Shown: positions 8,547 through 45,944 of the stretch, one piece after another
Numbering within the stretch: position 1 is the stretch's first letter
Layout: each line of letters opens with the position of its first letter
Source of the DNA: a virus
Direction: 5' to 3' (one strand)
IMG/VR virus record: IMGVR_UViG_3300025816_000009
Span: 17,412-81,411 of that record
Length of the DNA: 64,000 nt
Program-made: the position numbers and the translations under genes
The notes under the pieces: model-generated
What the model was told of the DNA's origin: nothing
Seen by the model: only the letters and a program-made list of their open reading frames with translations
Database searches by the model: none

Positions 8547-8723
8547 GGGAATGACCTTAGAAGGCTGAACGGATTAGGACATATTTCGAACTATGCACCG
8601 ACGTTGGAATAACTAACTCCACACCTTAGTCTCATTTCACTCTCTTTCAAGCACGTTATGAGATACCTTCACATTCCCGCCGCCCGTTGTGGTCGCGGGG
8701 CGACATAGGAACTAAGTTCCTAC
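8547..8723 (-). ncRNA. Putative structured RNA R3 (two 5' hairpins plus closed domain family)
   Basis: GTAGGAAC-TTA-GTTCCTAT; GTCGCCC...GGGCGGC; GGGAATG...CATTCCC closing stem. Confidence 0.6.
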
Positions 8724-8747
8724 AAACTAAGCGAAAGGCTCTCCCCT

Positions 8748-8800
8748 TATTAATGTTTCGGTGTATCAATGTCAGTGAACCTCAATGAAAAGGTTTATAA
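8748..8800. promoter_or_regulatory. Bidirectional class-E cassette driving R3 and R4
   Basis: TATTAATGTTTC-N6-TCAAT-N11-TCAAT-GAAAAGG-TTTATAA. Confidence 0.75.
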
Positions 8801-8823
8801 CTGAAAGCCTGCCTCATTAGTTT

Positions 8824-8934
8824 GTAGGAAGACGCGACACGACATCGACCCGGACGCGCCCTTTACTAGACGCTGTTGAAAAATACTCGCATGAAAGGGA
8901 CATGGATGGCGCTATTCACGCTCCGTCTTCCTAC
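8824..8934 (+). ncRNA. Putative structured RNA R4 (terminal-stem family)
   Basis: First 11 nt GTAGGAAGACG perfectly complementary to CGTCTTCCTAC at 8924-8934; starts 30 nt after TATA. Confidence 0.65.
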
Positions 8935-9536
8935 GACTTAATTCTATCAAAGACCATCAACGTGTTTTTGAACCACCAAAAACTTGAGTCTTTTCTAATT
9001 TGTAATGTATCGGCGAGATGCAAACTGAATCCTCGTCTCGCCATCTCCGCGATTATCACTTCATTCGGTTGTTCGTTTACGTGATAATATCCACCTTGTC
9101 CGGGAATTGCCCAAGATACAATTGCTCTGTTCAAACAAGTTTTACGGATGTTGTGAAGTAAATCTTGTTGCCTATTGGGTGGAATATGCTCGCCGACTTC
9201 TAGGCAGAGGATGTTCGCTCTGTCAAGTTCGACCAACTCTTCGGCCAAATCGACTTGGTGAATTGGATGAAATCTTGCGAGATGTTCTAGCGGCGTTCCT
9301 TCGAATCCTTCAACTTCGAAACCTTGCGTCGAAAGTGATACGCAATAATCTCCCGGTCCACAACCGAAGTCATAGATTGGTTCGTCCATTGGAAAATATT
9401 TCCACAAGTTTTTCATAAGGTCGGGGTCAGAACCATGCTGACCATCCGCTTCTTCGACATTCCAAATCCCGGTCGGTCCTACCATTGACTCACTTCTTCT
9501 TTTTGGAGCGATTTCCGAAAGCCTTTCTTTTACCAT
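8931..9536 (-). CDS. Class I SAM-dependent methyltransferase
   Basis: YDFGCGPG motif I; CLEVGEHI. Confidence 0.85.
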   Translation of the reverse strand: MVKERLSEIAPKRRSESMVGPTGIWNVEEADGQHGSDPDLMKNLWKYFPMDEPIYDFGCGPGDYCVSLSTQGFEVEGFEGTPLEHLARFHPIHQVDLAEELVELDRANILCLEVGEHIPPNRQQDLLHNIRKTCLNRAIVSWAIPGQGGYYHVNEQPNEVIIAEMARRGFSLHLADTLQIRKDSSFWWFKNTLMVFDRIKS

Positions 9537-9876
9537 CGGCTATGTCTTTTCGTTTCGCCATTTTCTTTGTTTCTTCCTTTAGTCTCTTAGTTATGACAGC
9601 GCCGGGTAAAACTTGTTGAGTAATTGGGTCATATTTGTAATAACCCGGATGACGTGCCTCACGGCGTTCTCTCATACAAATATCACAATAGTGCGTTGAG
9701 TCCTTGGTATGTGAGAACTTTTGCTTGACACCTTCGACGAATAATGCTCTTTCAAGCGCTTCTTGTCTTCCGTCTCCATATCCCATTCCGATTATGCAGG
9801 GACGACCGTGAGTCTTGCATGGTTCTCCGCATAATTTTGTTGGCTTTGATACTCTCTTAATTTCTCGTTGCTCCAT
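9490..9876 (-). CDS. Hypothetical Cys/His-rich basic protein
   Basis: ORF in operon; C..C..H..C and H.C..C clusters. Confidence 0.6.
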   Translation of the reverse strand: MEQREIKRVSKPTKLCGEPCKTHGRPCIIGMGYGDGRQEALERALFVEGVKQKFSHTKDSTHYCDICMRERREARHPGYYKYDPITQQVLPGAVITKRLKEETKKMAKRKDIADGKRKAFGNRSKKKK

Positions 9877-9877
9877 A

Positions 9878-11230
9878 TTATATCACCCTTGACATTCCGC
9901 CTAGCGGATGTATTTCAATTGCAGTCTTCAATATCTGCTTTTCTAATTGGTCAGTTAGAACATCCCAATTGAAGTTCTTCTCGGCAAACTTTCTCGCGTT
10001 CTCTCCGAACTCTTTTCTTTCTTCATCTTGTTCGTAAGCCGTTCGCATTTTCCAAGCGAGGTCTTCAATATCGACTAATGTCATATTGACTCCCCATTGA
10101 GGTCCTGTAATGTGAGTAGAGGACTTAGCAATCCAACCGCGTCGTTGAGGTCCGTAGCCGACAAGTTCCGGACCTGTTGAGTTATCGGGAAGAATGATTG
10201 GCTTTCCGCAGGCCATGGCTTCTGCTGATGGAATACCAAAACCTTCTCCGCCTGTAGCCATGATATGAACATCACATGATTGGAACAATCTCGCCATCTC
10301 TTCTGTTGTCAATCCCGAAAGTGGATTCGAACTTGTATCAGAGAAAGCGACGTAATCGCCTAAGTCGTATTGAGCGATAAGAGCCGGAAGATTCCAACCG
10401 CCCATTCCGAACGTGTCTGTCGGGTCGCCACAGTGTAGAACCAAGCCGACACTTTCGGGAACATCGGGATTGTAATGAATGAATTGTGAAAATGCTTCTA
10501 ACAACCGGGGTATTTGCTTCCGATTTGTATTTCTTGCCACACTCATAAACACGAAATCCCACTTAATTCCCATCTTCTCTTTTAGTTCCGCTTTTTCCTC
10601 GTCGGTGATTGGTTTGAAAATATCAAGTTCGACACCGTGATACAAAACCGGCGTATCTTCTGTAAGATAACGGTCGAGGATTCCATCTCTGTTTTCAACC
10701 GGCCTTGTTCCTTCGGATGAATAATCTTTTACAAACTCGGTGAAAGTTCTTTTTCCAAACTTGCTCATCCACATCGGCGTGTGAACCATTTTCAGAATAT
10801 CCTTCCAAGCCGGAGATATTGGAAATCCGTCTATTGGAAGATAAGCAATATAAGGGATTGACATTTTGTTTGTTGACATTACCGCATGACCAATATACCA
10901 AGGGTCAATTAAAGAAATGTAAATATCAATATCAAGTTTCTTTATTGTAGCCTCGAGAACTGTTGGGCTATTCGGTCCGCCCAAGTTTTCAGACCCATAC
11001 CCGGAGATACCGGCGTGAACCATAGTCCATCCTTCGGGGTGAAGAAAATCCTCGCCGTTGTAATCCCAACCCATAACGAAAACTTCGTGGCCTTTGGCTA
11101 CTAATCTCTTAATCAAGTTTCGACTTACGATTCCATATCCCGTTGGTCTTGTAGGTTGCTCGCTTCCCCATAGGATTCTCACCATGTCTTTCGGTTGAAA
11201 CCCACTACTATAACAGTTATGATTCATCAA
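9878..11230 (-). CDS. GT-B (GT4-like) glycosyltransferase
   Basis: PTGYG, RNTNRKQ, GEGFGIPSAEAMACGKPII, FNWD. Confidence 0.9.
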   Translation of the reverse strand: MMNHNCYSSGFQPKDMVRILWGSEQPTRPTGYGIVSRNLIKRLVAKGHEVFVMGWDYNGEDFLHPEGWTMVHAGISGYGSENLGGPNSPTVLEATIKKLDIDIYISLIDPWYIGHAVMSTNKMSIPYIAYLPIDGFPISPAWKDILKMVHTPMWMSKFGKRTFTEFVKDYSSEGTRPVENRDGILDRYLTEDTPVLYHGVELDIFKPITDEEKAELKEKMGIKWDFVFMSVARNTNRKQIPRLLEAFSQFIHYNPDVPESVGLVLHCGDPTDTFGMGGWNLPALIAQYDLGDYVAFSDTSSNPLSGLTTEEMARLFQSCDVHIMATGGEGFGIPSAEAMACGKPIILPDNSTGPELVGYGPQRRGWIAKSSTHITGPQWGVNMTLVDIEDLAWKMRTAYEQDEERKEFGENARKFAEKNFNWDVLTDQLEKQILKTAIEIHPLGGMSRVI

Positions 11231-11777
11231 TGGAAGGGCCGGGCATATTTTGTTTGTCTTTCAATTCCGCCTTTCTTTTTTCTCGGACTCTTTGTCTTTT
11301 TTTCTTTTGAGACTTGCGTCGAGATTTGATTGCGTTTACTCGGAGCGGGTCATCAATGGTATCGAGGTCAATAGTCTGTTTTCCCCCAACGTGTTCCGGA
11401 CCCTTGCCGACAAGTTTCTGTTCGTAGTGATGAATCCGATGACAATTTGAACAGAGGATGTCGCACTTCGCCATCTCTTCTTCGATTCTTTTTCTTGAAT
11501 ATCCATTACTTACCAAGTGCGAAACGCCGGCAGTTTTAGTTCCGGCAACACGATGATGATATTCTAAAAGCCAAGGACAAGTTTCGCCGCTCAATCCACA
11601 TTCCGAACAATTTGATTCTCTTCTGATTTCATCATACCAACGTCGAATATTCTTACGACGCAACGCAACTTCTGTCTTGCGTTTCTTTGCGTTATTTGCA
11701 TAATAGACCTTCTGATAACGGCGATTGTACGCCCTTCGCTTATCAGCGTCCTTGTACGGCACGATTGATTCGAGCAA
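11217..11777 (-). CDS. HNH endonuclease-like protein
   Basis: CSECG...LEYHH...EEMAKCDILCSNCHRIHH. Confidence 0.8.
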   Translation of the reverse strand: MLESIVPYKDADKRRAYNRRYQKVYYANNAKKRKTEVALRRKNIRRWYDEIRRESNCSECGLSGETCPWLLEYHHRVAGTKTAGVSHLVSNGYSRKRIEEEMAKCDILCSNCHRIHHYEQKLVGKGPEHVGGKQTIDLDTIDDPLRVNAIKSRRKSQKKKRQRVREKRKAELKDKQNMPGPSIDES

Positions 11778-11796
11778 GTTTGAGGTTATTTAGTGA

Positions 11797-11899
11797 GGTT
11801 GTAGAAGCCGGGGGAACGATTGCGGGTATTACAGGAGAGGACTTTCGTCTTACACACACACCGTCTTCTGTCTTCTTACCCCGGATTTCTTCTACTTCC
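11797..11899 (-). ncRNA. Putative structured RNA R5
   Basis: 5' GTAGAAG-AAAT-CCGGGG pairs with 3' CCCCGG-CTTCTAC; GAC-GAAA-GTC hairpin; starts 30 nt after TATA (11929). Confidence 0.6.
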
Positions 11900-11923
11900 A
11901 ATCTAAGCGAGTGGACTTTCATT

Positions 11924-11975
11924 AATAAAGGTTTTCATTGAGAGGTTAAGACATTGAGATAAGGAAACCTTTATA
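11924..11975. promoter_or_regulatory. Bidirectional class-E cassette
   Basis: AATAAAGGTTTTC-ATTGA-N11-ATTGA-N6-GAAACC-TTTATA. Confidence 0.75.
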
Positions 11976-11998
11976 GGTGGAAACCTCTAGGGTTAAAC

Positions 11999-12295
11999 AT
12001 GGCAAGACAGATGGCGCTTACACAACAAATCAGAAACAGACTACCTACTCTATACTCAACAGATGGAGCGGGAACAGAAGCAATCGGACAAGTACGATAC
12101 TTTTGGGGAAGCAGTGCTTCCTTCGTAGCAACAGAGTTCGACGGAGAAGATACATTCTTCGGATATATCAGCGGTGTTCAAGAAGACGGATGGACTTACA
12201 TGAGCCTTTCAGAAATGTGGTCAACACACGGACGCTTCATGGGTACAGAGAGAGATTACCACTTCACACCAACAGCAATCGCAAACCTACAGTAA
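11999..12295 (+). CDS. DUF2958-like protein
   Basis: LPTLYSTD, RYFW, VATEFDGEDTFFGYI, YMSLSEM, ERDYHF; leaderless ATG 29 nt after TATA. Confidence 0.7.
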   Translation: MARQMALTQQIRNRLPTLYSTDGAGTEAIGQVRYFWGSSASFVATEFDGEDTFFGYISGVQEDGWTYMSLSEMWSTHGRFMGTERDYHFTPTAIANLQ

Positions 12296-12334
12296 GCGAT
12301 TCCCTCATAAACCCCGAATCATCCTCGGAATAGT

Positions 12335-12736
12335 ATGGCGGTTCATGCGTTTACAGGAATCACAGGGCAAATAACAGTTAGTGGAACAATAGTCGGTTTC
12401 GTTTCGGGTGATTTTACAGTAGCAAGAGCGACAGGAAAATACATTACTCTCGGTTCAAACTTGCCGACAGCGAATACACGAGGATTACAATCAGTTAGCG
12501 GTAGTCTGACGAAAGCATGGGGTCTATCAGACGACACTCTATGGGATTGGTTTTACGGAGACACCGAACTTGTAATCGCATTTGACGCAGATGACCCATC
12601 TAGCGGCGGAACTCATACATACACAGTCTCCGGATGTGTTATTACAGATTTAGCAATTGAAGGCTTGGAAGCAGGCGCAGAAGGAGCATTGATGATTAAT
12701 GCGTCTTTCGAAGGACTATCAATCTTGAGAGATTGA
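12335..12736 (+). CDS. Major tail (tube) protein
   Basis: Beta-rich 133 aa directly before chaperone and tape measure genes. Confidence 0.7.
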   Translation: MAVHAFTGITGQITVSGTIVGFVSGDFTVARATGKYITLGSNLPTANTRGLQSVSGSLTKAWGLSDDTLWDWFYGDTELVIAFDADDPSSGGTHTYTVSGCVITDLAIEGLEAGAEGALMINASFEGLSILRD

Positions 12737-12746
12737 GTAAATTAAG

Positions 12747-13094
12747 GTGATTAAGATGACAGGATGGTTAAACTCCGCGCTCGAGAGGGCTTCGAACCCA
12801 ATAACAGTGAATGTAGCCGACTTAGGTTTAGAAGTCGATGAACTACAGGTGAAGACACTTAGCGCCGCCGAGTTTCAAATAATGAAGAAAGACCCTGCCA
12901 TATCAAACATGAACATCGCTGATAGGCAAGAATATATGGGCTTGAAAACTATCTATGAAATGTTAGCAAAATGCGATGACAGTTTGAAATGGTCAGAGTT
13001 TCAAAAATTACCTTTACAATTACTTTCAGAACTAGCGTCGAGAATAACTGAAACCGTCGGAAACTTGGACGGTGAAGGTGTTTTGGGAAACTGA
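12747..13094 (+). CDS. Tail assembly chaperone (gpG-like)
   Basis: Between tube and tape measure genes; ends in slippery G-GGA-AAC-TGA. Confidence 0.75.
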   Translation: MIKMTGWLNSALERASNPITVNVADLGLEVDELQVKTLSAAEFQIMKKDPAISNMNIADRQEYMGLKTIYEMLAKCDDSLKWSEFQKLPLQLLSELASRITETVGNLDGEGVLGN

Positions 13095-13309
13095 AACTTG
13101 ACGCCGAATCAGACGGCGGGCAGTTCCTCTATGGGCTATTGACCGAAATAGGTTGTACGCCTCAACAGTGGAGAGAAATGTCGTCAGAAGATACACTTTG
13201 GTACATATCAGCCCATAGTGAGAAAAACCGTCGCGCAAATGAATCGTCTCGTAAGCAATCGCAGATGGCGAAGGCGAGAAGTAATTTGGCGAAAAGTAGG
13301 AGACGATGA
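13085..13309 (+). CDS. -1 frameshift extension of tail chaperone (gpGT-like)
   Basis: -1 frame open from GGGAAAC (13085-13091) to TGA 13307-13309, overlapping the tape measure ATG. Confidence 0.7.
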   Translation, partial: GKLKLDAESDGGQFLYGLLTEIGCTPQQWREMSSEDTLWYISAHSEKNRRANESSRKQSQMAKARSNLAKSRRR

Positions 13310-15681
13310 ATATGGTTATGGGTGCAGGGAAAACGGCTGTCAATGCAGTTGTCTCCGCTGACGCTTCCGGTTATACAAAAGCCATGAAAGGAGTCGCCGC
13401 GGCAACAGGAACGGCAACTACGGCGGCTAAGGGATTCGGTGGAGCATTAGCCGGATTAGCCATCACCTTCGCAACTTTCTTCGCAGTTTTCAAAGCCATC
13501 GGTTTCGTTGTCAACACAGTCAAACTATTCATTGATTTTGAGGAACAACTTTTCCGCACAAGTGCGATTATGAAACAGTTCACACTTGGAGCAGAAGAAC
13601 AGGCTATCGCCATGGGTAAACTAGAAGACGAAATCCGAAGCGTTGCGGCAGGTTCGAAGTTCACAGCGACAGAAGTCGGCGCTATGGCTGAAACTCTAGC
13701 GCTTGCCGGTTTGTCGCTTGACCAAATGAGAGGTGCGACATCCGATTTAGACACGGAAGCCGGAAATGCTCTGAAAACAATGGTTGACTTCGCGGTTGTT
13801 GCCGGAACAGATGTTGAGACTGCGGCGGGAATTGGTATTGCATCTCTCAAAGCATTCAGACTTGATATTCAAGACCTAGAAAGAGCAACATCAGTATTGG
13901 CAAACACCTTCACTTCTTCTTTCGTGAACCTACAACAATTGGGTGATTCCATGCGTTTCTTCGGTCCTACTGCGGCGGCGGCAGGTGTGAGCATATCAGA
14001 AGCGGCGGCGGCTGTAGGTGCGCTTGGAGACGCGGGATTGCAGGGTTCTATGGCCGGTACGGGTCTTAGGCAGGCAATCAACAAATTAATCGCTCCGACA
14101 GATGATGCGAGAAGAACCATGGAGAGATTAGGATTTGAGTTTACGGTTTTATCACCGGCGGGCTTGGCGGCGAAAGAGGCACTAGGTTCGACAATCAGAA
14201 CCATTGACGATTTAGAAAAAACAATTTCGTCAGCGAACATGGAACTCAAATCTCTGAACAACGAATTAACCGACATGAGTATTGAAGAGGAAAAGAACTC
14301 AATCAACATCGCAAGGATTCGTCAAAGAGCGGCTAGGCAAAACCGAAACTTGACTAAAACCGAAATGGCTACAATCAAAAGATTGGAATCGGCCAATGAA
14401 GATTTAGCACTTGCTCAAAGAGAAGGTGCGTTGGAATCGAGACAAAGAGAAAGAGCGTTAGACAGGTCAACAGATTCGCTTGCAGAGCAGAATGACGCTT
14501 TCAAGATTCTCAAAGATACTGTCGATAGTCAAACCACAGGTGTCGGTAGTTTAGTCGATATGATAGAAGAACTGAATAGTTCCGGCGCTACGACAGCGGA
14601 GATATTGGAAATCTTCGGTGTTCGAGGTGGTGGTTCGATATTGGCTCTCCAAGGAAACGCCGAGGCTCTAAGGTCAATAGCAGAAGCGAATCAATTAGTA
14701 TTCGACGCGACTGATATGAATAACACACTACAAGACCAATTCGTTAGACAGTTAGAAGGCTCAACGGCTTTCGCGCTTGCTGAAACTCGTTCGAAGTTCG
14801 AGGAATTATCTTTGGTTATTGGTGAACCATTTGCTCGCTTGATAACAATGGAAGGTGGGATTAAGCAAACCCTCGATGCGGCAATTGAGAGAGCGTCGGG
14901 AATGGGCGATGAGTTTCAAATGATTGCTGATTCGGTCGAGACTGAATTATTGCCTGCGTTTGCAGAGGCTTTCAAACCCGGCAACGTGGAGAAGTTTGTT
15001 GAAATACTCGGCGCATTAGTTCCGGAAATATTGAAAATAGTTGGGGTCATTGGAAAATTAGCAGAGATAATAGAACCAATACTCGATGGTATTTTAGCAG
15101 TTATGGAGAAGATGGCCGAGTTCAAAGATTTCGTCGGTGATGATAACGAGGATAGAGAAACTAGGTTAGTCGGGAAGGAAGGCGAAACAACATTCGATTC
15201 TGTAAAAGACGTCGGGAAGATGACTGCGGCGGGAGCGGGAGTTGGCGCGTTGGTTGGTGGTCCTGTAGGCGCGTTAGCCGGAGCGGCTGTTGGTTTGGGT
15301 GCGGGTGTTGTTTTTGAAGTCGGGCAAGCAGTTGTTCATCATGGTGGAAATGCTTTAGATAATGAAACAGACATAATGGGAAATCCGGTAGGAATGCCGA
15401 TGGCAATTGGTGGAGTTGTTAACTCTCCAATTACAGCATTGATTGGGGAAGCCGGTCCGGAAGCAGTTATTCCGCTCGATAGGCTTCCGGAAATGGTAAG
15501 TCAAATTAATTCCACAAGTTCGACCTCAAATACCGAGCAGGTGATTAACCTCACTTTCGACTCAATCAATATCGGGGCGGGAAACAACGTCTCGGCGGGA
15601 GATATAAGGCAGATTATTGAAAATGAAATGCCTAAGATTATACGCAGTTCATTAACAAGAGGCGTTCGGGGGGTGTTGTGA
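13306..15681 (+). CDS. Tape measure protein (TP901-like core)
   Basis: SKFTATEVG, GLQGSMAGTGLR, MAIGGVV...LIGEAGPEAVIPL. Confidence 0.92.
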   Translation: MNMVMGAGKTAVNAVVSADASGYTKAMKGVAAATGTATTAAKGFGGALAGLAITFATFFAVFKAIGFVVNTVKLFIDFEEQLFRTSAIMKQFTLGAEEQAIAMGKLEDEIRSVAAGSKFTATEVGAMAETLALAGLSLDQMRGATSDLDTEAGNALKTMVDFAVVAGTDVETAAGIGIASLKAFRLDIQDLERATSVLANTFTSSFVNLQQLGDSMRFFGPTAAAAGVSISEAAAAVGALGDAGLQGSMAGTGLRQAINKLIAPTDDARRTMERLGFEFTVLSPAGLAAKEALGSTIRTIDDLEKTISSANMELKSLNNELTDMSIEEEKNSINIARIRQRAARQNRNLTKTEMATIKRLESANEDLALAQREGALESRQRERALDRSTDSLAEQNDAFKILKDTVDSQTTGVGSLVDMIEELNSSGATTAEILEIFGVRGGGSILALQGNAEALRSIAEANQLVFDATDMNNTLQDQFVRQLEGSTAFALAETRSKFEELSLVIGEPFARLITMEGGIKQTLDAAIERASGMGDEFQMIADSVETELLPAFAEAFKPGNVEKFVEILGALVPEILKIVGVIGKLAEIIEPILDGILAVMEKMAEFKDFVGDDNEDRETRLVGKEGETTFDSVKDVGKMTAAGAGVGALVGGPVGALAGAAVGLGAGVVFEVGQAVVHHGGNALDNETDIMGNPVGMPMAIGGVVNSPITALIGEAGPEAVIPLDRLPEMVSQINSTSSTSNTEQVINLTFDSINIGAGNNVSAGDIRQIIENEMPKIIRSSLTRGVRGVL

Positions 15682-15682
15682 G

Positions 15683-18600
15683 ATGGCAAAGTTTACTCAA
15701 AATATAACGAAGCCATTTTCGCGCTTGAAGAATGGTTTGGTTGAACTTCAAAGATGGTGGCCGGCTTATGTCAAGAATGACGGCGTTGGCGGATTGACTG
15801 TTGACCCTGTTTTGTATCACACCAACTTCGGACATCTCACAAATGCCGATGAAGGCTCACTGAACAGCGAGAATGATACGCCGGGGGTAAGAGTCGAGGC
15901 AATCAAAGACGACGGCACAGCGGCCGCTAATAACGACGGAAGCAATACAACATTCACAATCACTATCTCCGGCGCGGGAACTTTCAGTCCCATGTGCGTA
16001 GTCAGCCAAGCCGGAATTGAAACGAAGTTTATGCTCATCGCTCCATCTCCGGACACTCAAGCAAATGCAGAATCGGTTTACGGCGAGAGCGTTTCATCTA
16101 CCGATAGAGGATTCGGTGGCGGAACTACTTGGCTACTTAGTCAAGGTCCTTATCCTGTTTTCATGACAGTACAGGAGTTCGCAGAGATGCTTGATACATA
16201 CAGGCATATTGGTTCAAATGACGGACATAAGAAAGCATTCCTTCCTCATGCGATGCTCGGTGGCGGTGCTTTAGGTCTAGGAGCGTCCACAGCGCTTCCG
16301 CAGATACAGAATGACCCTAGAGTCTCATCAAGCACTAATTGGCCTGCTGACGGCTCAACAGCGTCAATAACACAATCTCTGATTCGAGCAACGGTCTTCA
16401 TGCCTTTGATGTTAGACAATAATCAATTTGATAAGAGAATAACCAATGCTAGTATTGACCATTCGACACCGAGAGACTACGGAACGACGACCAACCCCGA
16501 GTTTGTCGGTTATCTGACAGCAGATGGAACGGGAATAACAAGATATGATTCTGACCCTCAAGGTGAAGATTCGGCTACAATTAGATACAAAGATTTAGGA
16601 TATTCCGGCGACCACTTACAAGGAAAAGTGGGCGGGTGGTCATACTTTGAAATAAACAAAACACACAACAGCGGTACTCCGGTAAAAGGCGGAATGTCAA
16701 ATCCCGATATTACAGCAGATTCCGGTCCATCATTAGCGCCAAAATATAGAATGAGAATGGCGCTTGCCTGCTTTTTGAAAAATGGAACTTATGATATTAC
16801 AGACGGAAATATAATTCCTTACATTTACGACGCTGATAGAACAATCGGCGGAAAAAATACAATGACACTTTATCAAGTTTGGAACGGTAAAGATGGAAAA
16901 GGCGAAACAGGAAATACTCCGCAACATGATTGCGACGCGCAGATTTACCCGATGTTCGATTTCGTTCAAGGTCCTGTTTCACCGGCGGCTCAAGGTTCGA
17001 ACGCTCACAACAGCGCTTTGGCCGAAGCAAGGTCGTGGCCGAACTTGGTAGCACTAGACACGAATAAATCATTGACTGAAAAAATTAATCCAAAGTTCCA
17101 AATTGTCAGACCGAATCCTCGAAGGCATAGATTGTTCGGAGTTAAATTAACGACAGCCGGTGTCATGGAACTTTTCATTGAAGGAAGTGGAGTCGCAAGT
17201 TATTTTGATTTCCAATGCCGAGAAGGAATGCCGATTTACATCACAGGAATGACAGGGGTCTTGGGAACAGGTTCTCCCAATCCGGATTTCAGACTTGATG
17301 GTTATCAAGATGATGCGGCATCCTCGACAACAATTAATGCAACTAAAACGACAGGTGGTTGGAATATGAACGGTTGGTGGATTACAGCGGGTTTTAGTGC
17401 CGGGTTCGATGAAATCAGCACGAATACATATGATGAAATATTTGGCGATGGTGATTCTACCGCGGTCAAGTTTCAAATCGTTAGAATCAAAACTTTGGTA
17501 AACATTAGACCAACGTCTGAACATTTCTATAGAATAGGTTCAGCGGCTTCTCCATCAACAGCATACGTTTGTCAAGGAAGAAAACCGGGTTATATGGACC
17601 TAGTATTGAAGTTAGGCTCAACCACTAATCCTTACGGAATTGCGCCGATGAGTGTAGGCACGTCCATGGGTTCTCCCGGAAATACACAAGTTAGATTCGG
17701 CGGCGTTGGTTCTCATGGAAGTGGATTTAGTTCTGATACCAATGTTCCCCAATCTGAAAACGATACATATCCTTGTAGGCCAACCGTGAGAAATGCTCAA
17801 TACCCCGACTCAAGCGGACATTTTAACAACGATAATAATTACATTGTTAGAGCGATTAGTCCTCGCAAAGATGGAGACGACACTTTCTCAATGTCTCCGA
17901 CAGTATCTTCCTTTGGTGGTGGTTCTCTAAGAGTTCCGCCGCCTGTTGGTTGGGACTTACCACAGGCTTACTTTTCTTGGCCTATATACCAAACAGGACC
18001 GGCGGGAACTACAGTTCCGGGTAGTGAGACGGCTTCAAGAACGTCTCGTCTTTGGTTGAATGACACGACAGGCGCTTATCCGGTGAGAAACGTAAATGTT
18101 GATTATGGTAGTTTTTCCAAATGGGGTCATCGTGGATTATCAATTGCTATGTTGTCTTACATGGATTCGACTACGGGTCGCCACGCTTGGGATTACATAA
18201 AACCCGTTTCAACTTCGGGAAGTTGGTTATACGGAAGAAACAGACCTTGGCCGGCTCACGAAAGATGCGGAACAAGATTTGGTTATGGACCTTCATTATT
18301 AGAAACCGCCAAAGTCGTAAATACAAATGGGATTTCATACGATGGTTGGCAAGACTACAACGCAAATGGCGGCAATAGAATTGAGGCAGGCGAAGAGACT
18401 ACGAAGATAGGCGTCTCTGAAATCGGTTGTTCTCCTGTATGGTTAGACATGGAGATGAGAGCATTCGTCCCGGTCAGTGAAAACAGAATGACACTCATTG
18501 AGTTCGATAACGGTATTTCATATCCTGTACTCGGAAGACATTCTATGATTACAGGCGGAATAACAAACGACGCTCAATTCGGACTTGGGTTCTATCCAAA

Positions 18601-20533
18601 ATCATCAAACGGTTCAAAACAACAATTCAACGCTTCGACTGCCCCCGAAAGTCAATTGCTTGGAGCATTACAGAACTCATCCGTGGCAACTTCCGGCGTT
18701 GATACAAGAAGACCGACATTCACGCTTGGTCGTCCGGCTGTATATATTTGGGGAACTTCTCCATATTTCTCAAATGCTGATTGGTCGAATACCGATACTT
18801 GGCCGTTCAGTACAAATAAACTTGGTTGGGGTGGTTTAGGAAGTGATGTTGGTTATGGAACAGGAACAGCATTAGCAGAGGGAACTCAAACAATTAGAAC
18901 TGTATTCACCGAAGGCGGAATGGAATTACTTTTGAATGGTAATAGCAAAGGTGTTGACACGAACTCGGGTCAGCACATTTGGGGAATGACAATCAAAGCC
19001 TGCGATGTGTTGGCGGCTAACGGAAGTATCAACACACCGACGGTAATTAAGAACAGTAAGGACGAACCGATTACAAACTCAAGTCCGAATCTAGCCGTAT
19101 CTTCTAAAGATTTACAGATTGATTATTTGACGCTTAGACAAATCCCATCTCCGGCCATGCTTCCTTTTGATGTTAGTACGACAACACAGTCCGTTGCTAA
19201 CGTAGCAAAATATCGAAGCCTCGACATCACGGCTGAAAACATTAGCACTAGCAGAGGTATGAGGATTCGAGTCAGTCTTTTCGAACCGCCTGCGGCGACA
19301 GGAATCCCGCAGGCAGAACCAACTACGGCAATTACAGGATTCACAGATTTAGACCCGGGATTCATAGCAGGTGTTGGAAGTGTTGACCTTTCAAACTTGC
19401 CTGCGTCAGCAATAACAAATGGTTTCGTCATCAAATATCATTTCTATATTCCTCATTCAAATGAAACTGATTTACATCCGATTAATTGGAATCAGATTCC
19501 TATCATTAGAAATTGGGAAGTTCAGTATGATTTGAAACCGACGGCAAGTTTGGACGTGATTGGAAACTCATTCAGTGGCGACCTATCGAGTCCAATAGGA
19601 ACAGAAGTGGGCCACATAATCTCGTTCAGAGGAACAGGAATTACAACTGACGTTGATAGATTAATTTCTCAAATCAAGTTTGACTTCGGTGATGGTTCTC
19701 AAACAGGTTGGTTAGATTTTTCCGACCAAACTTTACAAACAACTACTTACGATGTTGCTCACGTTTATTCGAAAGCAGGTTCTTTCAACGCGGTTGTATA
19801 TTCAAAAGATGACAACGGAAATGAGTCTGTAGCAAGTTCCGCAATATCTGTAGTCGTAGCAGAAGTGAAACCTGTCGCCCTATTGAGAGCAATACCTTCC
19901 ATGATAAGAGCCGGACAAGCAACAACTTTTGACGCTTCTGAAAGTTATGTTTTGTCAACTGACCAATCGAGAACAATTGCATCTTATACATTTGATTTCG
20001 GAGATGGCAGTTCAACTGTCTCCGGCTCAAGCCCGAATGCCGACCATACTTATGCAACCGCCGGAGAATATATGGCGACAGTCAGCGCGACTGACAACGC
20101 ATCTCCGGCCAATACATCCGTTGTCGCGAAAGTGGTTGTCAAGATATTACCTGCGACTCTTGTAATACCGTTAAATCTCAACACCAAGCCGGCTTCATTT
20201 GACCGAACAAGAAAAGCGAACTATAGTTCCACGCCTGTTCTTGATGCAGTATATCCGGAAATGAGCGACATGGGTTCGAGAAGTGATGAGTTCAAGATGA
20301 CAGGTTCATTCCTCAAGGCGACAGCGAATGCCGATATTGATTTCATGGAAGAGATTCTAGTCAGTGGCTCTTTAGTCGAGTTCGAATATGAAGATACAGA
20401 TTACAGCGGAAGTGCAGTAAACAAAAAGTTCGTAGGAAGATTAACTGATTTCAACTATCAAAGAGAAGGTGGACGCCATGGCGAAACACCGTGGTCGGCT
20501 ACGCTGATGCGTGAAGCCGGACTAGGAAATTAA
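15683..20533 (+). CDS. Large tail protein with two C-terminal PKD domains
   Basis: Follows tape measure gene; FDFGDG...HVYSKAGSF and FDFGDG...HTYATAGEY. Confidence 0.75.
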   Translation: MAKFTQNITKPFSRLKNGLVELQRWWPAYVKNDGVGGLTVDPVLYHTNFGHLTNADEGSLNSENDTPGVRVEAIKDDGTAAANNDGSNTTFTITISGAGTFSPMCVVSQAGIETKFMLIAPSPDTQANAESVYGESVSSTDRGFGGGTTWLLSQGPYPVFMTVQEFAEMLDTYRHIGSNDGHKKAFLPHAMLGGGALGLGASTALPQIQNDPRVSSSTNWPADGSTASITQSLIRATVFMPLMLDNNQFDKRITNASIDHSTPRDYGTTTNPEFVGYLTADGTGITRYDSDPQGEDSATIRYKDLGYSGDHLQGKVGGWSYFEINKTHNSGTPVKGGMSNPDITADSGPSLAPKYRMRMALACFLKNGTYDITDGNIIPYIYDADRTIGGKNTMTLYQVWNGKDGKGETGNTPQHDCDAQIYPMFDFVQGPVSPAAQGSNAHNSALAEARSWPNLVALDTNKSLTEKINPKFQIVRPNPRRHRLFGVKLTTAGVMELFIEGSGVASYFDFQCREGMPIYITGMTGVLGTGSPNPDFRLDGYQDDAASSTTINATKTTGGWNMNGWWITAGFSAGFDEISTNTYDEIFGDGDSTAVKFQIVRIKTLVNIRPTSEHFYRIGSAASPSTAYVCQGRKPGYMDLVLKLGSTTNPYGIAPMSVGTSMGSPGNTQVRFGGVGSHGSGFSSDTNVPQSENDTYPCRPTVRNAQYPDSSGHFNNDNNYIVRAISPRKDGDDTFSMSPTVSSFGGGSLRVPPPVGWDLPQAYFSWPIYQTGPAGTTVPGSETASRTSRLWLNDTTGAYPVRNVNVDYGSFSKWGHRGLSIAMLSYMDSTTGRHAWDYIKPVSTSGSWLYGRNRPWPAHERCGTRFGYGPSLLETAKVVNTNGISYDGWQDYNANGGNRIEAGEETTKIGVSEIGCSPVWLDMEMRAFVPVSENRMTLIEFDNGISYPVLGRHSMITGGITNDAQFGLGFYPKSSNGSKQQFNASTAPESQLLGALQNSSVATSGVDTRRPTFTLGRPAVYIWGTSPYFSNADWSNTDTWPFSTNKLGWGGLGSDVGYGTGTALAEGTQTIRTVFTEGGMELLLNGNSKGVDTNSGQHIWGMTIKACDVLAANGSINTPTVIKNSKDEPITNSSPNLAVSSKDLQIDYLTLRQIPSPAMLPFDVSTTTQSVANVAKYRSLDITAENISTSRGMRIRVSLFEPPAATGIPQAEPTTAITGFTDLDPGFIAGVGSVDLSNLPASAITNGFVIKYHFYIPHSNETDLHPINWNQIPIIRNWEVQYDLKPTASLDVIGNSFSGDLSSPIGTEVGHIISFRGTGITTDVDRLISQIKFDFGDGSQTGWLDFSDQTLQTTTYDVAHVYSKAGSFNAVVYSKDDNGNESVASSAISVVVAEVKPVALLRAIPSMIRAGQATTFDASESYVLSTDQSRTIASYTFDFGDGSSTVSGSSPNADHTYATAGEYMATVSATDNASPANTSVVAKVVVKILPATLVIPLNLNTKPASFDRTRKANYSSTPVLDAVYPEMSDMGSRSDEFKMTGSFLKATANADIDFMEEILVSGSLVEFEYEDTDYSGSAVNKKFVGRLTDFNYQREGGRHGETPWSATLMREAGLGN

Positions 20534-20534
20534 G

Positions 20535-20725
20535 TGTAGGTGGGAGCGACCCATAGAACTCTCGACAGGTAATCAAGGCGGGTCATCGTCCCTTTTCCTC
20601 AACACCAAGCCGCACGACGACCGCATACACTGACGCCTTCGTGGTTCTCCTACTTTGTAAAAGTCCGCGGGGGGTTAGTCGCCGTAGGGTTCGTACCTTT
20701 CGCGGTGTCCGTCGCGTCCTCTTAC
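20535..20725 (-). ncRNA. Putative structured RNA R6
   Basis: Starts GTAAGAGGACGCGAC 30 nt after TATA (20755); 3' GTCGCTCC complementary; ORF-free. Confidence 0.55.
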
Positions 20726-20785
20726 AAACTAATGACAGAGCCTTTTGGTTATAAACCTTTTCATTGAGAGTTTAGTAATATTGAG

Positions 20786-20993: not shown

Positions 20994-21016
20994 AAACTAA
21001 ACGAGTCGTCTTTTGG

Positions 21017-21069: not shown

Positions 21070-21092
21070 AGGGGGAATGCCTAGGACAGAAC

Positions 21093-29250: not shown

Positions 29251-29502
29251 GGGCAACAGTATGCCTCTGTTCAGATTCGCCGGTTTGGCGGCCGCATATT
29301 CCACACAATCCCGGTAAGGATTTCGTTCCCAACCACGAGAACTCAAATGTTTTATAGATAGGCTACTGACCACCATTCTCTCACGTTAGTTCATTTTATA
29401 ATCAAGTCTAACACCAAGCAATTCCTTTCGGACCTCTTAGAGTGCGTTCCCCCTATCCTGTTGCCCGGGCGTCAAAGCGCCCAAGAGAAGCCACCTTCCC
29501 TC
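29251..29502 (-). ncRNA. Putative structured RNA R8 (two 5' hairpins plus closed domain family)
   Basis: GAGGGAAG-GTGG-CTTCTCTT; GGGCG-N6-CGCCC; GGGCAACAG...CTGTTGCCC; many internal hairpins. Confidence 0.65.
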
Positions 29503-29525: not shown

Positions 29526-29580
29526 TTATAAAGGTTTCGTTTTATCAATGTTAATAGTTATCAATAGAAAGATTTATTAA
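29526..29580. promoter_or_regulatory. Bidirectional class-E cassette driving R8 and R9
   Basis: TTATAAAGGTTTC-N6-TCAAT-N11-TCAAT-AGAAAGA-TTTATTAA. Confidence 0.75.
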
Positions 29581-36123: not shown

Positions 36124-36152
36124 TTATTAACGTGGGAATGTCCCATTTCAAT

Positions 36153-43182: not shown

Positions 43183-43427
43183 TAATGTACGACCCGAATC
43201 ATGGATTATATCAACGAGTGAAAGCAGAATCAGCGCTTGGTATTGACGAGGAAACTCGCGACCAAATTATGACTGCCGTCAAACTTGACTTACTTCTTGC
43301 TCATGCGGGAATCACTGACGATAAAATCGAATTGGCTTATGACGCCGCATTGAAAAATCAATTGGCTGATGTCAGAGATGCTTTCGAAGCCCTCGTCGGG
43401 AAGGACGAGGATTTGGATGAGATTTGA
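43179..43427 (+). CDS. Hypothetical acidic protein
   Basis: Coupled ORF. Confidence 0.55.
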   Translation: MIMYDPNHGLYQRVKAESALGIDEETRDQIMTAVKLDLLLAHAGITDDKIELAYDAALKNQLADVRDAFEALVGKDEDLDEI

Positions 43428-44592
43428 TAATGAGAAAATGGAATTACTTCTCGAACATCTCGGGTTCAGACATTTCCCAAGGGCGATAGGAAATCCAAGA
43501 CAAGAGTTCGTTTACTCAACCGATGAAGTTTATCCGAAACTTGTTCAGTGGGATGGTAATTCATCTTGCTTCATTTCAACCGGCGGTTATGACGCGCTCA
43601 AGTGGGAAGTTGGAAATAAACAAAGTCCGGGTAAAATAATTCACGAGATGACTTTCTTTGACTTCGACCACGAGACGAAACCGGAAAACGCATTTGCTGA
43701 CGCTCAAAGATTATCTCAATTCTTGACGAAGATGAACATCGCACATTGGGTTCAGTATTCCGGAAGCAAGGGTTATCATTTATTCATAATTCACAAACCT
43801 ACGAAGTTCAAGTTCGACCATCGCGACGGTTCAGCGGATGCGTTGAAGAATCTTCTAAACCAAACTCAAACTCATCTCGGAAAAACACTTGGACTGAATA
43901 CTTTGGATGAACAAACTACCGGCGACCCAAAACGCTTGTGTAGGATTCCATTCACTCGTCATGTAAATCGCTTGGGTAAATTATCCGGCAGATATGCTGT
44001 TCCTGTTGACACGGAAAAACTTGACACAATTTCACACGAGGATATTGAAAAAATGTCCTATCGACCTCGATACGCTTTGCCTAACATCATCGGGAGAAGA
44101 CTAACTTTGCGAGATTTCATTGTCGAACTTGGTGTTGAACTTCACCAACCCGAAACTCAACTTCGTGATATTATCAATTCCGATTTCGATTACAATCCAT
44201 CAACGACGGCATTTCTAAAATCGCTTGAATACAGATGTCCGGGTGTCGTCAATGAATTGAAGCGTAGGAATCCCCCACACAACGCAAGGGTGTTTAGTGC
44301 GCTGTTCGGAAAAACATTAGGCTATGATGGGGGGAGATTCGAAGATATTTGGATGGAAATGGGGAAGACAATTGGTTATGTGGACTTACACAATAAAGAG
44401 CATAGACTCTATCAAATGTCAACAATATTCGATGACCCGAAATGGCGGTCATTCCCGAACTGTACAACACTCAAAGCCAAGGGCTGTTGCATTGGTGAAA
44501 CCTGTCCGAGATGGAAGACTTTTCAAGGTGGGGCAACTAACCAAGTTCGTACAATAAACAGGAAGTGGAGAAAGAAAAATGGTAGCAAATAA
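43417..44592 (+). CDS. Archaeo-eukaryotic primase, PriS-PriL(Fe-S) fusion
   Basis: FFDFD, YSGSKGYH, RLCRIP; C-terminal CP...PPHNAR...PNCTTLKAKGCCIGETC. Confidence 0.85.
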   Translation: MRFDNEKMELLLEHLGFRHFPRAIGNPRQEFVYSTDEVYPKLVQWDGNSSCFISTGGYDALKWEVGNKQSPGKIIHEMTFFDFDHETKPENAFADAQRLSQFLTKMNIAHWVQYSGSKGYHLFIIHKPTKFKFDHRDGSADALKNLLNQTQTHLGKTLGLNTLDEQTTGDPKRLCRIPFTRHVNRLGKLSGRYAVPVDTEKLDTISHEDIEKMSYRPRYALPNIIGRRLTLRDFIVELGVELHQPETQLRDIINSDFDYNPSTTAFLKSLEYRCPGVVNELKRRNPPHNARVFSALFGKTLGYDGGRFEDIWMEMGKTIGYVDLHNKEHRLYQMSTIFDDPKWRSFPNCTTLKAKGCCIGETCPRWKTFQGGATNQVRTINRKWRKKNGSK

Positions 44593-45460
44593 GACAGCGA
44601 AATATGACAAGATAATCGAAAACGAAGAATCGCTTGCGGCGTTCTTTGACGGCGAACCGAACCTTGGTCAACTTTTGGGATTGTACAGATACTCGAAAAA
44701 CTTGATTGAAGAAATGGCACTTTCGGGAACGAGACAGGATATGCCGGACCAAGATGAGTTCCTATTGACTTCAATAGACCCATGGAAGTTAGAGAAAAAA
44801 CTTGGGGAAATGATTCTGAACGAAATGGTTAGCCGACATCGAAAAGTTGACCATCGAGAACATTGGACGATGTGCGCGTATCTCGGAGATTTAGGATTCG
44901 AAGTTGTTCATCTCAATACAGGAGAAGGAGATGTATCAAGTCGAAAAGTCAGTATCGAGAGAAAAGAGGACGACCTCGTTCCGTCTCTGTTCGATGGCAG
45001 AAGACTAAGACAACTAAGCGCCATGAGAGAAACTGCTGAATATTCATTTTTGATAGTTTCGAAATCATATACGGAAATCAAAAAGGGATTACAAGAGCGA
45101 CAAGTTTCAGATAAAATCTTCACGTCGTTCATAGCAAGTTTGGCCGCTGTTGGCTATCCGCCGATGTTTATTGATGACAGATACGACGCCGCTCAAGTGA
45201 TGCACCAATTAATCGGGAAGATTGAAGATGACAATCATCGACTCTATGTTCCCCGACCCAAAGGCGCTAACCCAACTGATTTCCGAAATGCTATGGTCGA
45301 GGCTTTGCCGAAGGTTGGATTCAAAACACGCCGAAAATTAGTAGCCAAGTTTCCGAGCATAGCAAAATTAGTAGCCGCGAGTGTTGATGATATACAAGCG
45401 ATTGAAGGAATTGGTCAGAAGACTGCCGAAAAGATTTGGCATTGTCTTCATGATGAATAA
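44579..45460 (+). CDS. ERCC4/XPF-family nuclease with HhH domain
   Basis: VDHRE, GD, IERKEEDDL..S..DGR...QL; IEGIGQKTAEKI. Confidence 0.85.
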   Translation: MVANKTAKYDKIIENEESLAAFFDGEPNLGQLLGLYRYSKNLIEEMALSGTRQDMPDQDEFLLTSIDPWKLEKKLGEMILNEMVSRHRKVDHREHWTMCAYLGDLGFEVVHLNTGEGDVSSRKVSIERKEDDLVPSLFDGRRLRQLSAMRETAEYSFLIVSKSYTEIKKGLQERQVSDKIFTSFIASLAAVGYPPMFIDDRYDAAQVMHQLIGKIEDDNHRLYVPRPKGANPTDFRNAMVEALPKVGFKTRRKLVAKFPSIAKLVAASVDDIQAIEGIGQKTAEKIWHCLHDE

Positions 45461-45464
45461 CACC

Positions 45465-45944
45465 GGGGCTTTCAACTCTTCCTACTCAATGAGGCATCCT
45501 TCTTCCCTAGTGTTTTTATGAGAACAGTGCCTAAGTTTCGAGTCGGATGTTCTCAAGTTTTTCTTGTTTGGGTATGCTGTATGACCACTTATTGCCTCGG
45601 CTTCTTTATCCGCTAGTGGTTCAAAGGGTTGGGAATGGGATAGCCCGTCTGCTTAGGTGCGTGAGAATTACCTCGTTGCCCCCTATCCATCGCTACTTTC
45701 TTGCCTAATTTATCGTGGTCTGTTCATTACTATTCCATAGTGTTGTTTCCCTTCAAGGGGTTCTACCCAAGAAGTCTCTCTTCCGCTTCAATCACTCGCT
45801 GTTTTTCGCTTTAGCCGCATATGCCTATGTCTTTGTGATTTCGAAGAGAGGACAAGTCCTCGCCGCCGAGCCTTCCTCGGAAGCATCTTCGCTCATTCCC
45901 GGGAGTCCGCCTTTCGACGTCTCCCATGAGAGGCAACCTCTCAC
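45465..45944 (-). ncRNA. Putative large structured RNA R14 (about 480 nt)
   Basis: GTGAGAGG-TTG-CCTCTCAT; GGGAG..GAAA..CTCCC; GGGAATG...CATTCCC; further stems; cassette at 45969-46007. Confidence 0.65.

Follow-up and report, generated by a model that had tools for sequence, protein, structure and literature searches.

Bacterial transcripts can be stabilised by a stem-loop placed right at their 5' end, the ompA 5' hairpin being an example. Small, abundant structured RNAs, some with a protein-binding role, are encoded by several viruses, including RNA C and RNA D of phage T4, the adenovirus VA RNA, the EBERs of EBV and the pRNA of phi29. At the DNA level, T4-type phages carry PeSL cassettes, repeated promoter plus stem-loop units at module borders that are tied to modular shuffling; the promoters are of the sigma-70 type and the stem-loop is a terminator (Arbiol et al. 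2010, PMC2839356). Halovirus HF2 has promoter-carrying intergenic repeats, a bidirectional promoter region included, and the main text of the account concerned contains no instance of 'non-coding', 'ncRNA', 'hairpin' or 'stem-loop' (PMC8707807). The literature searched yielded no family of structured RNAs from tailed viruses of archaea, and the magrovirus papers that were term-searched mentioned neither promoters nor non-coding RNAs.

Here we describe three predicted RNAs, R3, R8 and R14, of a tailed archaeal virus from marine metagenomes that is magrovirus-like by gene content. The window analysed is 64 kb (positions 17,412 to 81,411) of its 81.4-kb genome (IMG/VR record IMGVR_UViG_3300025816_000009; 81,411 bp). 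The three are best read as a new family with a shared, testable architecture. We give a probability of about one half to the fuller reading that they are paralogous, free-standing, non-coding viral RNAs that are structured, bury their 5' end and have a working, exchangeable core.

Promoter copies and three-helix layout

The genome contains at least 13 copies of a repeated BRE/TATA promoter. On the + strand the ATG lies 23-24 nt past the TATA box, giving leaderless genes. Three minus-strand copies lead into ORF-free DNA, and these are R3, R8 and R14. Their +1, by which we mean the promoter-predicted start, lies 25 nt past the TATA box in all three, and the spacing in R3 agrees with that of the leaderless ATG genes under the same promoter family. 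The R3 copy (8748..8787, minus strand) combines two ATTGA repeats with a BRE-like element, CGAAAC, and the TATA box TTAATA; between TATA and +1 lie 24 nt (8747-8724) that terminate in TTAGTTT. The R8 copy (29527..29565, minus strand) reads ATTGA-N-CATTGATAAAACGAAAC-C-TTTATA, and the 24 nt upstream of +1 terminate in TTAGGTTT. The far end of the R14 copy (45969..46008, minus strand) can also be read as a TATA box, belonging to a leaderless RFC-like gene at 46045 on the + strand. The start variant TTAG(G)TTT/G (slash at the start) is confined in this genome to non-coding units. There seem to be at least seven promoter-led units of this kind, and the others at 8824+, 20993-, 20725- and 35823- (sign for strand) also have a helix at the first nucleotide.

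R3 (8547..8723, minus strand, 177 nt) opens with a hairpin, HP1 (8723-8705; 8 bp, 3-nt loop), continues with a second, HP2 (8704-8679; 7 bp), and then enters the closing stem P3, whose 5' strand (8678-8672) and 3' strand (8553-8547) form 7 bp, GGGAATG/CATTCCC, around a three-hairpin core of 118 nt. In R8 (29251..29502, minus strand, 252 nt), HP1 (29502-29483; 8 bp, 4-nt loop) and HP2 (29482-29467; 5 bp) precede a P3 of 9 bp, GGGCAACAG/CTGTTGCCC (5' strand 29466-29458, 3' strand 29259-29251), that encloses a multibranch core of 198 nt. R14 (45630..45944, minus strand, 315 nt) has HP1 at 45944-45926 (8 bp, 3-nt loop), HP2 at 45925-45901 (5 bp, GAAA tetraloop) and, around 256 nt, a 7-bp P3 (5' strand 45900-45894, 3' strand 45636-45630) identical to that of R3, GGGAATG/CATTCCC. 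A script listing the pairs returned gaps of 0 on both sides of HP2 in each RNA, and the layout is present in MFE and centroid folds alike. The initial annotation had placed three minus-strand RNAs at starts 8723, 29502 and 45944, each with an 8-bp hairpin from +1 ending in a G-U pair, a second hairpin abutting it and a long-range stem around a variable domain, the stem being the same in R3 and R14 and different in R8; all of this was confirmed in each of the three, with +1 as predicted from the promoter.

We define family A by a promoter copy ending in the above start variant, HP1 of 7-8 bp, HP2 of at least 5 bp and a P3 of at least 7 bp (GGG...CCC), with zero-nucleotide gaps. R3, R8 and R14 have every one of these features, and the counterparts in two relatives, L013 and L006, have the structural ones behind a start preceded by other letters. 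The zero-nucleotide gaps recur in all six versions compared (R3, R8, R14, L013, L006, L015), in all of which HP1 begins at the predicted first nucleotide, as suits a 5'-terminal stabiliser hairpin, whose helix begins within about 0-2 nt of the transcript's end; its first pair is G.U in R3, R8 and R14 and in five of the six overall. As the three helices follow each other without linkers, the first nucleotide would lie within a compact, nicked three-way junction.

As in PeSL cassettes, the module borders of a tailed virus carry small repeated promoter units with a stem-loop. Identity with the PeSL type was rejected: the promoter is archaeal BRE/TATA with leaderless genes, and the hairpins come after the start with no U-run behind them. 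Unlike PeSL stem-loops, those of R3, R8 and R14 lead into a closed RNA domain of 120-260 nt. With HF2 the virus shares being an archaeal tailed virus with repeated promoter-bearing intergenic sequence, a likeness at the level of description.

Folding, strand and extent

Whole-molecule folding scores are modest, with z about -1.5 to -2.4 across computations: -2.27 for R3 (3/200 shuffles fold equally well), -2.28 for R8 (4/200) and -2.42 for R14 (2/100). The position of the layout is far more distinctive. The 81,411-bp genome offers 162,822 start positions, both strands counted. Of these, 47 fit a loose descriptor, six of them at R3, R8 and R14, and a strict one fits 11, three of which are the R3, R8 and R14 starts; 10 shuffled genomes give 0-6 strict fits (mean 2.3). 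Finding the layout exactly at the predicted starts is far beyond chance. Among 150 promoter-like sites in the relatives' loci, the descriptor fits only the orthologues of the three RNAs and the L006 site.

In all six versions the sense fold is 6-16 kcal/mol stabler than the antisense fold; the antisense z-score is lower than the sense one in two of them. Each fold contains 5-15 G.U pairs. These results bear on whether the helices are DNA-level palindromes, for example operators that a dimeric regulator binds where transcription starts, RNA structure playing no part. HP1 does form an inverted repeat, placed precisely on the start of promoters in a regulated class, and symmetric half-site changes would mimic compensatory ones. 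We regard this as exceedingly unlikely: the opening G.U and the further G.U pairs would be mismatches in DNA, the sense strand is consistently the stabler, the paralogues have wholly different sequences, and the P3 pairing spans 118-256 nt.

From their starts, the RNA strands are free of TTTT for 345 nt in R3, 271 nt in R8 and 512 nt in R14. Random segments average 5.0 such runs and 2.2% of random triples have none; the same three segments hold 8 A-runs. The first T-run on the RNA strand of R8 (TTTT at 29231) lies 20 nt past P3, within the next promoter copy. Neither R3 nor R14 has a T-run directly after P3, and their first ones, at 8378 and 45432, fall within convergent genes (ORF 8015-8440 and ORF 44579-45460, respectively); the ORF-free stretch from R14 extends to 45461. 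Each of the three units runs towards a + strand gene block from its 3' side, so the useful part could instead be a 3' extension into the oncoming + strand operon, acting by convergent transcription or as a cis-antisense RNA, with the 5' structure merely stabilising it. We consider this doubtful. Selection on helices reaches across the whole core (below), more than stabilisation alone would call for, and in R8 overlap with any + strand gene is unnecessary because a T-run stands so soon after P3, as does a complete promoter copy.

The G+C content of the three stretches is 0.48-0.51, against 0.447 for the genome. Some replication origins, such as oriF and oriG of phage T4, work through an R-loop in which a transcript is the primer. 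R3, R8 and R14 are likewise promoter-led and ORF-free, and R14 sits between an ERCC4-type nuclease gene and the RFC-like gene in a replication cluster, near a primase-like gene and PolB. It is nevertheless very unlikely that they are such origins with the promoter-made transcript as primer: the higher G+C and strong self-folding disfavour a lasting RNA-DNA hybrid or an unwinding element, cumulative GC skew makes no turn at any of the three, and compensatory changes and G.U pairs indicate selection on an RNA fold.

Conservation and change among relatives

R3 has orthologues in L003, L246, L248 and L252, with two compensatory pairs, both in inner helices; the L003 version has the same fold (z -3.37). 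HP1, the HP2 stem and P3 are identical in every letter across these orthologues. The HP2 loop is exchanged (11 nt vs 16 nt) and a 53-nt insertion at a helix tip is present or absent, three of the four combinations of loop and insertion being seen. In L006 the same three helices, again abutting, enclose another core at this site, and the L006 version folds into the layout on its own (z -4.00). R8 orthologues occur in L014 (97% identity) and L015 (80%). The structure taken from their alignment, the same one that was then tested, has 74 pairs, and 7 of them are compensatory. Shuffles give 2.4 +/- 1.3 (as many as 7 in 0/500), slid controls give 0 such pairs, and 97.7% of cells are paired. One of the seven is an A-U to U-A change in HP1. 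R14 and its L256 counterpart are nearly identical, with two compensatory pairs within one inner helix, and at the R14 site of L013, where the RFC is 77% identical, the stems are rewritten in the same layout (folded alone, z -3.32). These orthologue sets comprise 3-5 sequences each, mostly close.

Constraint is stronger on the three-helix module than on the core. Between R8 and L015, 4 of 54 module columns differ, compared with 63 of 210 in the core (Fisher P 4e-4), and within the core 23 of 104 paired columns differ versus 40 of 106 unpaired ones. Sequence variation is concentrated in loops and helix tips. HP2 stems are invariant, as is P3 among the R8 and R3 orthologues; because these stems do not vary, the evidence for their pairing comes from comparison of paralogues and between sites.

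The likeness among paralogues had been likened to covariation in the initial annotation. The same layout in different letters stands; strict covariation does not, because clear positional homology is limited to the promoter, the P3 that R14 has in common with R3, and some 8-10-mers shared between R8 and R14. The proposal of a conserved scaffold with an exchangeable payload fared better. The letter-identical R3 stems, the contrast between module and core in R8 and the recurrence of the layout in L006 and L013 speak for the scaffold. At least one relative does without part of it: in L010 the closing stem comes almost at the start and the closed domain has neither HP1 nor HP2, so the module can be dispensed with there. 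Exchangeability is borne out by the loop swap and 53-nt insertion of R3 and the different core of L006; that this part is a payload in function is putative.

The RNAs were found only within a narrow clade, and next to the RFC-like gene of relatives further away such a unit is lacking. Such a distribution would suit module-border spacers without function of their own, their hairpins being due to composition or to promoter-cassette recombination; alternatively, the units might be short leaderless ORFs, given that the first codon of R14 is GTG and opens a frame of 39 codons. That frame is missing in R3, R8 and L013, none of which has a start codon as its first codon; no ORF is common to the versions, and the 53-nt length of the R3 indel also counts against coding, which was rejected. 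The descriptor statistics, the compensatory changes and the gradients of constraint from module to core and from paired to unpaired columns further argue against this already disfavoured explanation, which we rate as highly improbable.

Comparison with known RNAs and proposed function

Rfam 15 gave 0 matches for the whole window at gathering scores. R3, R8 and R14 at E<=5 gave chance-level matches only (10.7-20.8 bits vs gathering scores of 35-70), among which the manA RNA motif (RF01745) was absent, and the L006 version gave 0 at E<=10. ARAGORN found 0 tRNA genes in the window, and none in the three RNAs with the threshold at its default or at 80%; when this was lowered to 70% and introns were permitted it made two calls, both in R8, with 'introns' of 51 and 97 nt. 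C/D box sRNAs carry box C (RUGAUGA) and box D (CUGA), which form a K-turn. No box C/D pair was seen on reading the R3, R8 and R14 sequences, and the only hits to C/D models, ceN28 (16 bits, E 1.7, opposite strand) and snoZ6 (15.3 bits, E 1.6), are far below gathering. We therefore rejected the tRNA and C/D box assignments. Contigs from RNA runs match the virus at >=99% identity in two runs; among the pieces listed none covers R3, and a foreign low-complexity contig accounts for the raised depth of the R3 bin.

Like T4 RNA C and D, VA RNA, the EBERs and pRNA, these RNAs are virus-encoded and non-coding, with their own promoter, a length of 150-320 nt and a terminal closing stem. Rfam matches none of the three to these RNAs, in which the 5' end pairs with the 3' end, whereas here two hairpins precede the closing stem. 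They are also much smaller than GOLLD or ROOL. A look-up with the R14 sequence returned this genome alone, and one for stretches resembling the beginning of the 8547-45944 region returned none from other genomes. With ompA-type stabilisers the three RNAs share a helix that starts no more than a nucleotide from the 5' end, which leaves no single-stranded 5' tail for end-dependent decay. They differ in having a nicked junction of three abutting helices instead of one hairpin and in being non-coding RNAs of an archaeal virus; stabilisation is putative.

Taking R3, R8 and R14 as structured RNAs with a buried 5' end, we propose that host RNA polymerase transcribes each off its own BRE/TATA promoter copy, to putative 3' ends. 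The transcript would open with a purine-rich octamer paired at once into the 8-bp hairpin, with HP2 and the GGG...CCC closing stem following directly. The module may thereby bury the 5' end and nucleate the fold, giving a long-lived RNA despite 5'-end-dependent decay by 5'->3' exonucleases of the RNase J / aCPSF2 type in Euryarchaeota. The working part would be the fast-evolving core, rich in GNRA loops and enlarged by helix-tip insertions. It most likely works by protein binding, as a sponge or scaffold for a protein of host or virus, and probably does not pair with viral messages; the searches found no antisense target within the virus and no partner protein.

A core that mimics a host RNA and turns over quickly in an arms race could make these RNAs decoys for a host defence or RNA-processing enzyme. 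The fast-changing core under a held module, with its loop swaps and insertions, the different cores of the three paralogues and the restriction to a narrow clade fit such a role. We think it unlikely, as the RNAs show no likeness to Rfam families, host-type RNAs included, and no tRNA shape. A broader picture, rather unlikely in our estimate, is that of a modular RNA chassis in viruses of marine archaea, in which a three-helix clamp shielding the 5' end from exonucleases is combined with interchangeable effector domains, swapped among genomes and among sites via recombination at the promoter cassettes. The RNAs would act as decoys against host defence or RNA-decay proteins; if so, no RNA-based counter-defence toolkit would have been described for archaeal viruses before.

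RNA decay in archaea is poorly understood. Should the module of R3, R8 and R14 shield the 5' end, it would serve as a natural RNA stabiliser of compact size in archaea, and uncultivated ocean viruses would be seen to invest in RNA effectors. With fast-changing cores under a fixed module, the three RNAs are candidates for a part in virus-host conflict.

Virus and repeated promoter

The 81,411-bp IMG/VR record, of which the window is positions 17412-81411, is rated complete by CheckV. It encodes structural proteins (portal, prohead protease, HK97-type capsid protein and tape measure), replication proteins (family B DNA polymerase, RFC-like clamp loader, primase-polymerase-like protein and ERCC4/HhH nuclease), an XPD-like helicase and a CbbQ/CobT-like pair. 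Among cultured viruses, haloarchaeal tailed viruses have the closest PolB (25% identity), and the close relatives are from marine metagenomes and metatranscriptomes; the phage collection gave no match by megablast (22 kb) or by tblastn (MCP). The gene set fits the magrovirus description in the excerpt of PMC5434244, and from this comparison of gene content we infer that the virus is magrovirus-like. An ORF at 3276-3953 (+) matches the Mom protein family (Pfam PF25680, E 9e-33); thus, the virus may modify its DNA.

One promoter is repeated at least 13 times in the genome. It consists of ATTGA, about 12 nt, CATTGATA, about 4 nt, CGAAAC and then TTTATA, the layout of an archaeal BRE/TATA promoter. 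Most plus-strand copies have an ATG 23-24 nt past the TATA box, the mark of leaderless genes. On the minus strand, three copies precede the family A RNAs R3 (8723 to 8547, 177 nt), R8 (29502 to 29251, 252 nt) and R14 (45944 to 45630, 315 nt); these end in TTAG(G)TTT, the next letter is a G lying 25 nt past the TATA box, and the DNA beyond is ORF-free. The start sites are predicted, since they derive from promoter geometry. A purine-rich octamer, similar in all, opens each of the six units having the TTAG(G)TTT and G start.

The promoter cassette is bidirectional (45951-46045 and 8787-8830), its far end reading as an opposite-strand TATA box, and this opposite face is predicted to drive a leaderless RFC-like gene (46045) and a promoter-led, ORF-free unit of a second group, family B (8824). 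Plus-strand promoter copies ahead of the CbbQ-like and CobT-like genes (50636-50730 and 53013-53115) have similar short leaders, CTCGTT..GGGTATAGCCCGA, downstream, which may be a shared cis element. The only protein gene adjoining a family A member on the RNA strand is a leaderless ORF of 111 codons at 28829-29164 (-), which lies after R8, has its own promoter copy and lacks a Pfam match.

A three-helix layout at the predicted starts

The initial annotation had given R3, R8 and R14 a common architecture, which was recovered in every element. In all three, an 8-bp hairpin (HP1) with a G.U first pair opens at the first nucleotide and is abutted, with a linker of 0 nt, by a second hairpin (HP2) of 7 bp in R3, 5 bp in R8 and 5 bp in R14. 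A long-range closing stem (P3) follows, again with a 0-nt linker, and encloses a core of 118 (R3), 198 (R8) or 256 nt (R14). All three helices are present in the MFE fold, the centroid and the pair listing. As had been noted, P3 is GGGAATG/CATTCCC in both R3 and R14, and in R8 it is GGGCAACAG/CTGTTGCCC.

Whole-molecule z-scores are only about -2.3 for the three RNAs. A strict descriptor of the layout fits 11 of 162,822 genome positions, three of which are the R3, R8 and R14 starts, and finds 0-6 matches in each of 10 shuffled genomes; a loose descriptor has 47 matches, of which six fall at R3, R8 or R14. Despite the modest z-scores, the occurrence of this layout at exactly the predicted starts is very unlikely to be due to chance. 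A further helix, joining letters before the start with letters past P3, can be drawn in R3 alone and was treated as chance.

The folds contain 5-15 G.U pairs per version, and the sense fold is more stable than the antisense by 6-16 kcal/mol in six of six versions; by z-score the sense strand is favoured in only four of the six. A DNA operator and an R-loop replication origin are each less likely readings than RNAs with a protected 5' end. TTTT, the archaeal stop signal, is absent from the RNA strand for 345 (R3), 271 (R8) and 512 nt (R14) past the starts, up to T-runs at 8378, 29231 and 45432. Random segments of matching lengths hold a mean of 5.0 TTTT runs, and 2.2% of random triples have none; the TTTT-free segments themselves contain eight A-runs. 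Antisense action in cis, by way of a 3' extension of these RNAs, is likewise the less likely reading.

The RNAs have no ORF in common: the first codon is not a start codon in R3, R8 or L013 (a distant counterpart of R14), and the GTG-led 39-codon frame of R14 is without counterpart in the others. Rfam gave no match for the whole window at gathering scores, nor for the three stretches and the version in the relative L006 at loose E-values. ARAGORN, at default and relaxed thresholds, proposed no credible tRNA shape; the manA motif did not fit; and K-turn, hammerhead and HDV-like folds did not fit by eye to the consensus motifs, with the ribozyme Rfam models also lacking a match. The hairpins of PeSL cassettes are terminators according to the excerpt of PMC2839356. 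Family A, in contrast, has an archaeal promoter and hairpins that are not terminators and is thus, as far as that excerpt describes them, not a cassette of the PeSL type. Trans-antisense action on viral messages was rejected as unsupported, because complementarity to the viral genome does not exceed chance: outside their own loci, the longest exact complement of the RNAs in the 81-kb genome measures 12 nt, and of the 11-mers in a shuffled R8 a mean of 8.8 already occur there.

Sixteen marine runs were listed, 13 of which contain part of window 1-10000. Four RNA runs were placed on window 1500-21499 as assembled contigs only. The virus is present at at least 99% identity in two of the four, at low depth (X1, 26 of 30 contigs; X4, 25 of 29). 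No contig piece among those listed covers R3 at 8547-8723, which in assembled contigs is neutral on R3 transcription. An acidic E/V-rich low-complexity stretch at 8168-8225 (+), in a SAP/DUF4214 protein, draws foreign high-depth contigs (depth 208 and 98), and these explain the raised depth of bin 8170-8836, which holds R3. One X1 contig covers 20630-20906, a family B region.

Conservation and change among relatives

Orthologues were sought in viral contigs by anchor gene (MCP, 10 loci; RFC-like, 1; methyltransferase, 6). Those of R8 occur in L014 (97% identity) and L015 (80%), and 97.7% of the alignment cells pair on the RNAalifold structure. Compensatory change affects 7 of 74 pairs. Shuffles give 2.4 +/- 1.3, with 7 attained in 0 of 500, and slid controls give 0, in a test that favours this structure because it came from the same alignment; one of the seven lies in HP1 (A-U to U-A). 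Between R8 and L015, 4 of 54 columns differ in the three-helix module and 63 of 210 in the core (Fisher P 4e-4), where paired columns differ less often (23 of 104) than unpaired ones (40 of 106).

A look-up of the R14 sequence across genomes matched this one alone. Comparison with the near-identical copy in L256 gives two compensatory pairs, both in one inner helix. The RFC-like protein of L013 is 77% identical, and there the three stems are all rewritten (7, 5 and 10 bp), with a G.U first pair and gaps of zero. MAFFT plus RNAalifold on R14, L256 and L013 returns a covariation term of +1.92 and many 'broken' pairs; as it misaligns the distant L013, we judged that RNA by its stand-alone fold, which has the layout of R14 (z -3.32).

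HP1, P3, the stem of HP2 and the greater part of the core are identical in all R3 orthologues (L003, L246, L248 and L252). Their HP2 loop comes in two unrelated forms, one of 11 nt and one of 16 nt, and a 53-nt insertion, which in the fold lengthens an existing helix tip, is present or absent; of the four ways to combine loop form and insertion, three occur. Two inner pairs have both sides changed with pairing kept (four of five sequences used, L248 being the same as L003). At the R3 site of L006, whose capsid protein is 84% identical, abutting 8-, 7- and 12-bp helices stand with a different core (z -4.00). At that site a long-range stem starts at the first nucleotide in L009 and the closing stem almost at the very start in L010, so the three-helix module is recurrent but not obligatory.

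These last three relatives have a closed domain of about 60 nt in common at the R3 site (L006 8800-8880, L009 6834-6905 and L010 about 4190-4290, minus strand). It reads ATAACTCCGTTGAAAGG ... GGGGAT.CGGACCGCGG within a GAGAGAGG/CCTCTCTC stem, has a different 5' part in each relative and has no Rfam match. The core motif common to L006 and L009 matched four stretches, none both new and relevant, and a fuzzy search of the relatives' loci found it in L010 also.

The RFC alignment comprises 79 loci; where the RFC-like protein is at most 70% identical, the genes next to it are in a different order and no RNA unit can be recognised. Among the matches listed for a loose start-site pattern, 15 have an ATTGA-like word upstream, none resembling the promoter cassette by eye. 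A tighter pattern found four stretches in viral contigs (two relevant) and 31 in metagenomes (eight relevant, four of these new: L246, L248, L252 and L256). The descriptor, applied to 150 promoter-like sites within loci of the relatives, fits the orthologues and the L006 site only, and no look-alike stretches were found in other genomes for window 7047-19046. Judged by these searches, family A appears small and clade-restricted.

R3 and R14 have CGGGAATG and CATTCCCAA in common at the closing stem, and R8 and R14 have GGATAGGGGG, ATATGCGGC and TGAACAGA, placed differently relative to the stem. Given these shared words and promoters that are clearly homologous, the three look like diverged, partly mosaic paralogues. 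Family A, carried by a marine archaeal virus, is a real, conserved and previously undescribed family of genes for predicted structured non-coding RNAs, and a lack of function is among the less likely readings.

Paired 5' ends and a possible role

The family B units, at 8824-8935 (+), 20993 to about 20875 (-) and 20725 to about 20657 (-), are ORF-free and each start from the cassette's reverse face. They have the TTAGTTT and G start of family A, with GTA(A/G)GA(A/G)GACGCG, and a partner 65-120 nt further on pairs with the first 7-11 nt of each. Another promoter-led, ORF-free unit runs from 35823 to about 35740 (-), with a related element in L016, L017, L018 and L019; the core element, which reads GAGCCCACCGAG...CAGGGGTCTTGG...GGTGGGCTC in relatives, is found again beside a methyltransferase gene at these four relatives' loci, and the unit appears to be one more conserved RNA. 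At L017 3480-3990 and L018 1850-2360, about 500 nt of G+C-rich ORF-free DNA leads from a plus-strand promoter copy to the methyltransferase gene (76% identical) and may form a long structured leader or be an additional RNA. The units at 8824+, 20993-, 20725- and 35823- all have their first nucleotides paired with a distant partner; in the predicted folds, a paired 5' end is a rule common to the non-coding units of this genome.

In family A the three helices meet without linkers, which places the 5' end in a nicked three-way junction. Buried there, the 5' end would be protected against 5'-end-dependent decay and the junction would fix the fold, with the variable core, rich in GNRA loops, acting as the effector, probably through protein binding. 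That these RNAs serve as decoys against host defence is less likely; we give about even odds to a module that protects the 5' end and fixes the fold, with the core as the effector.
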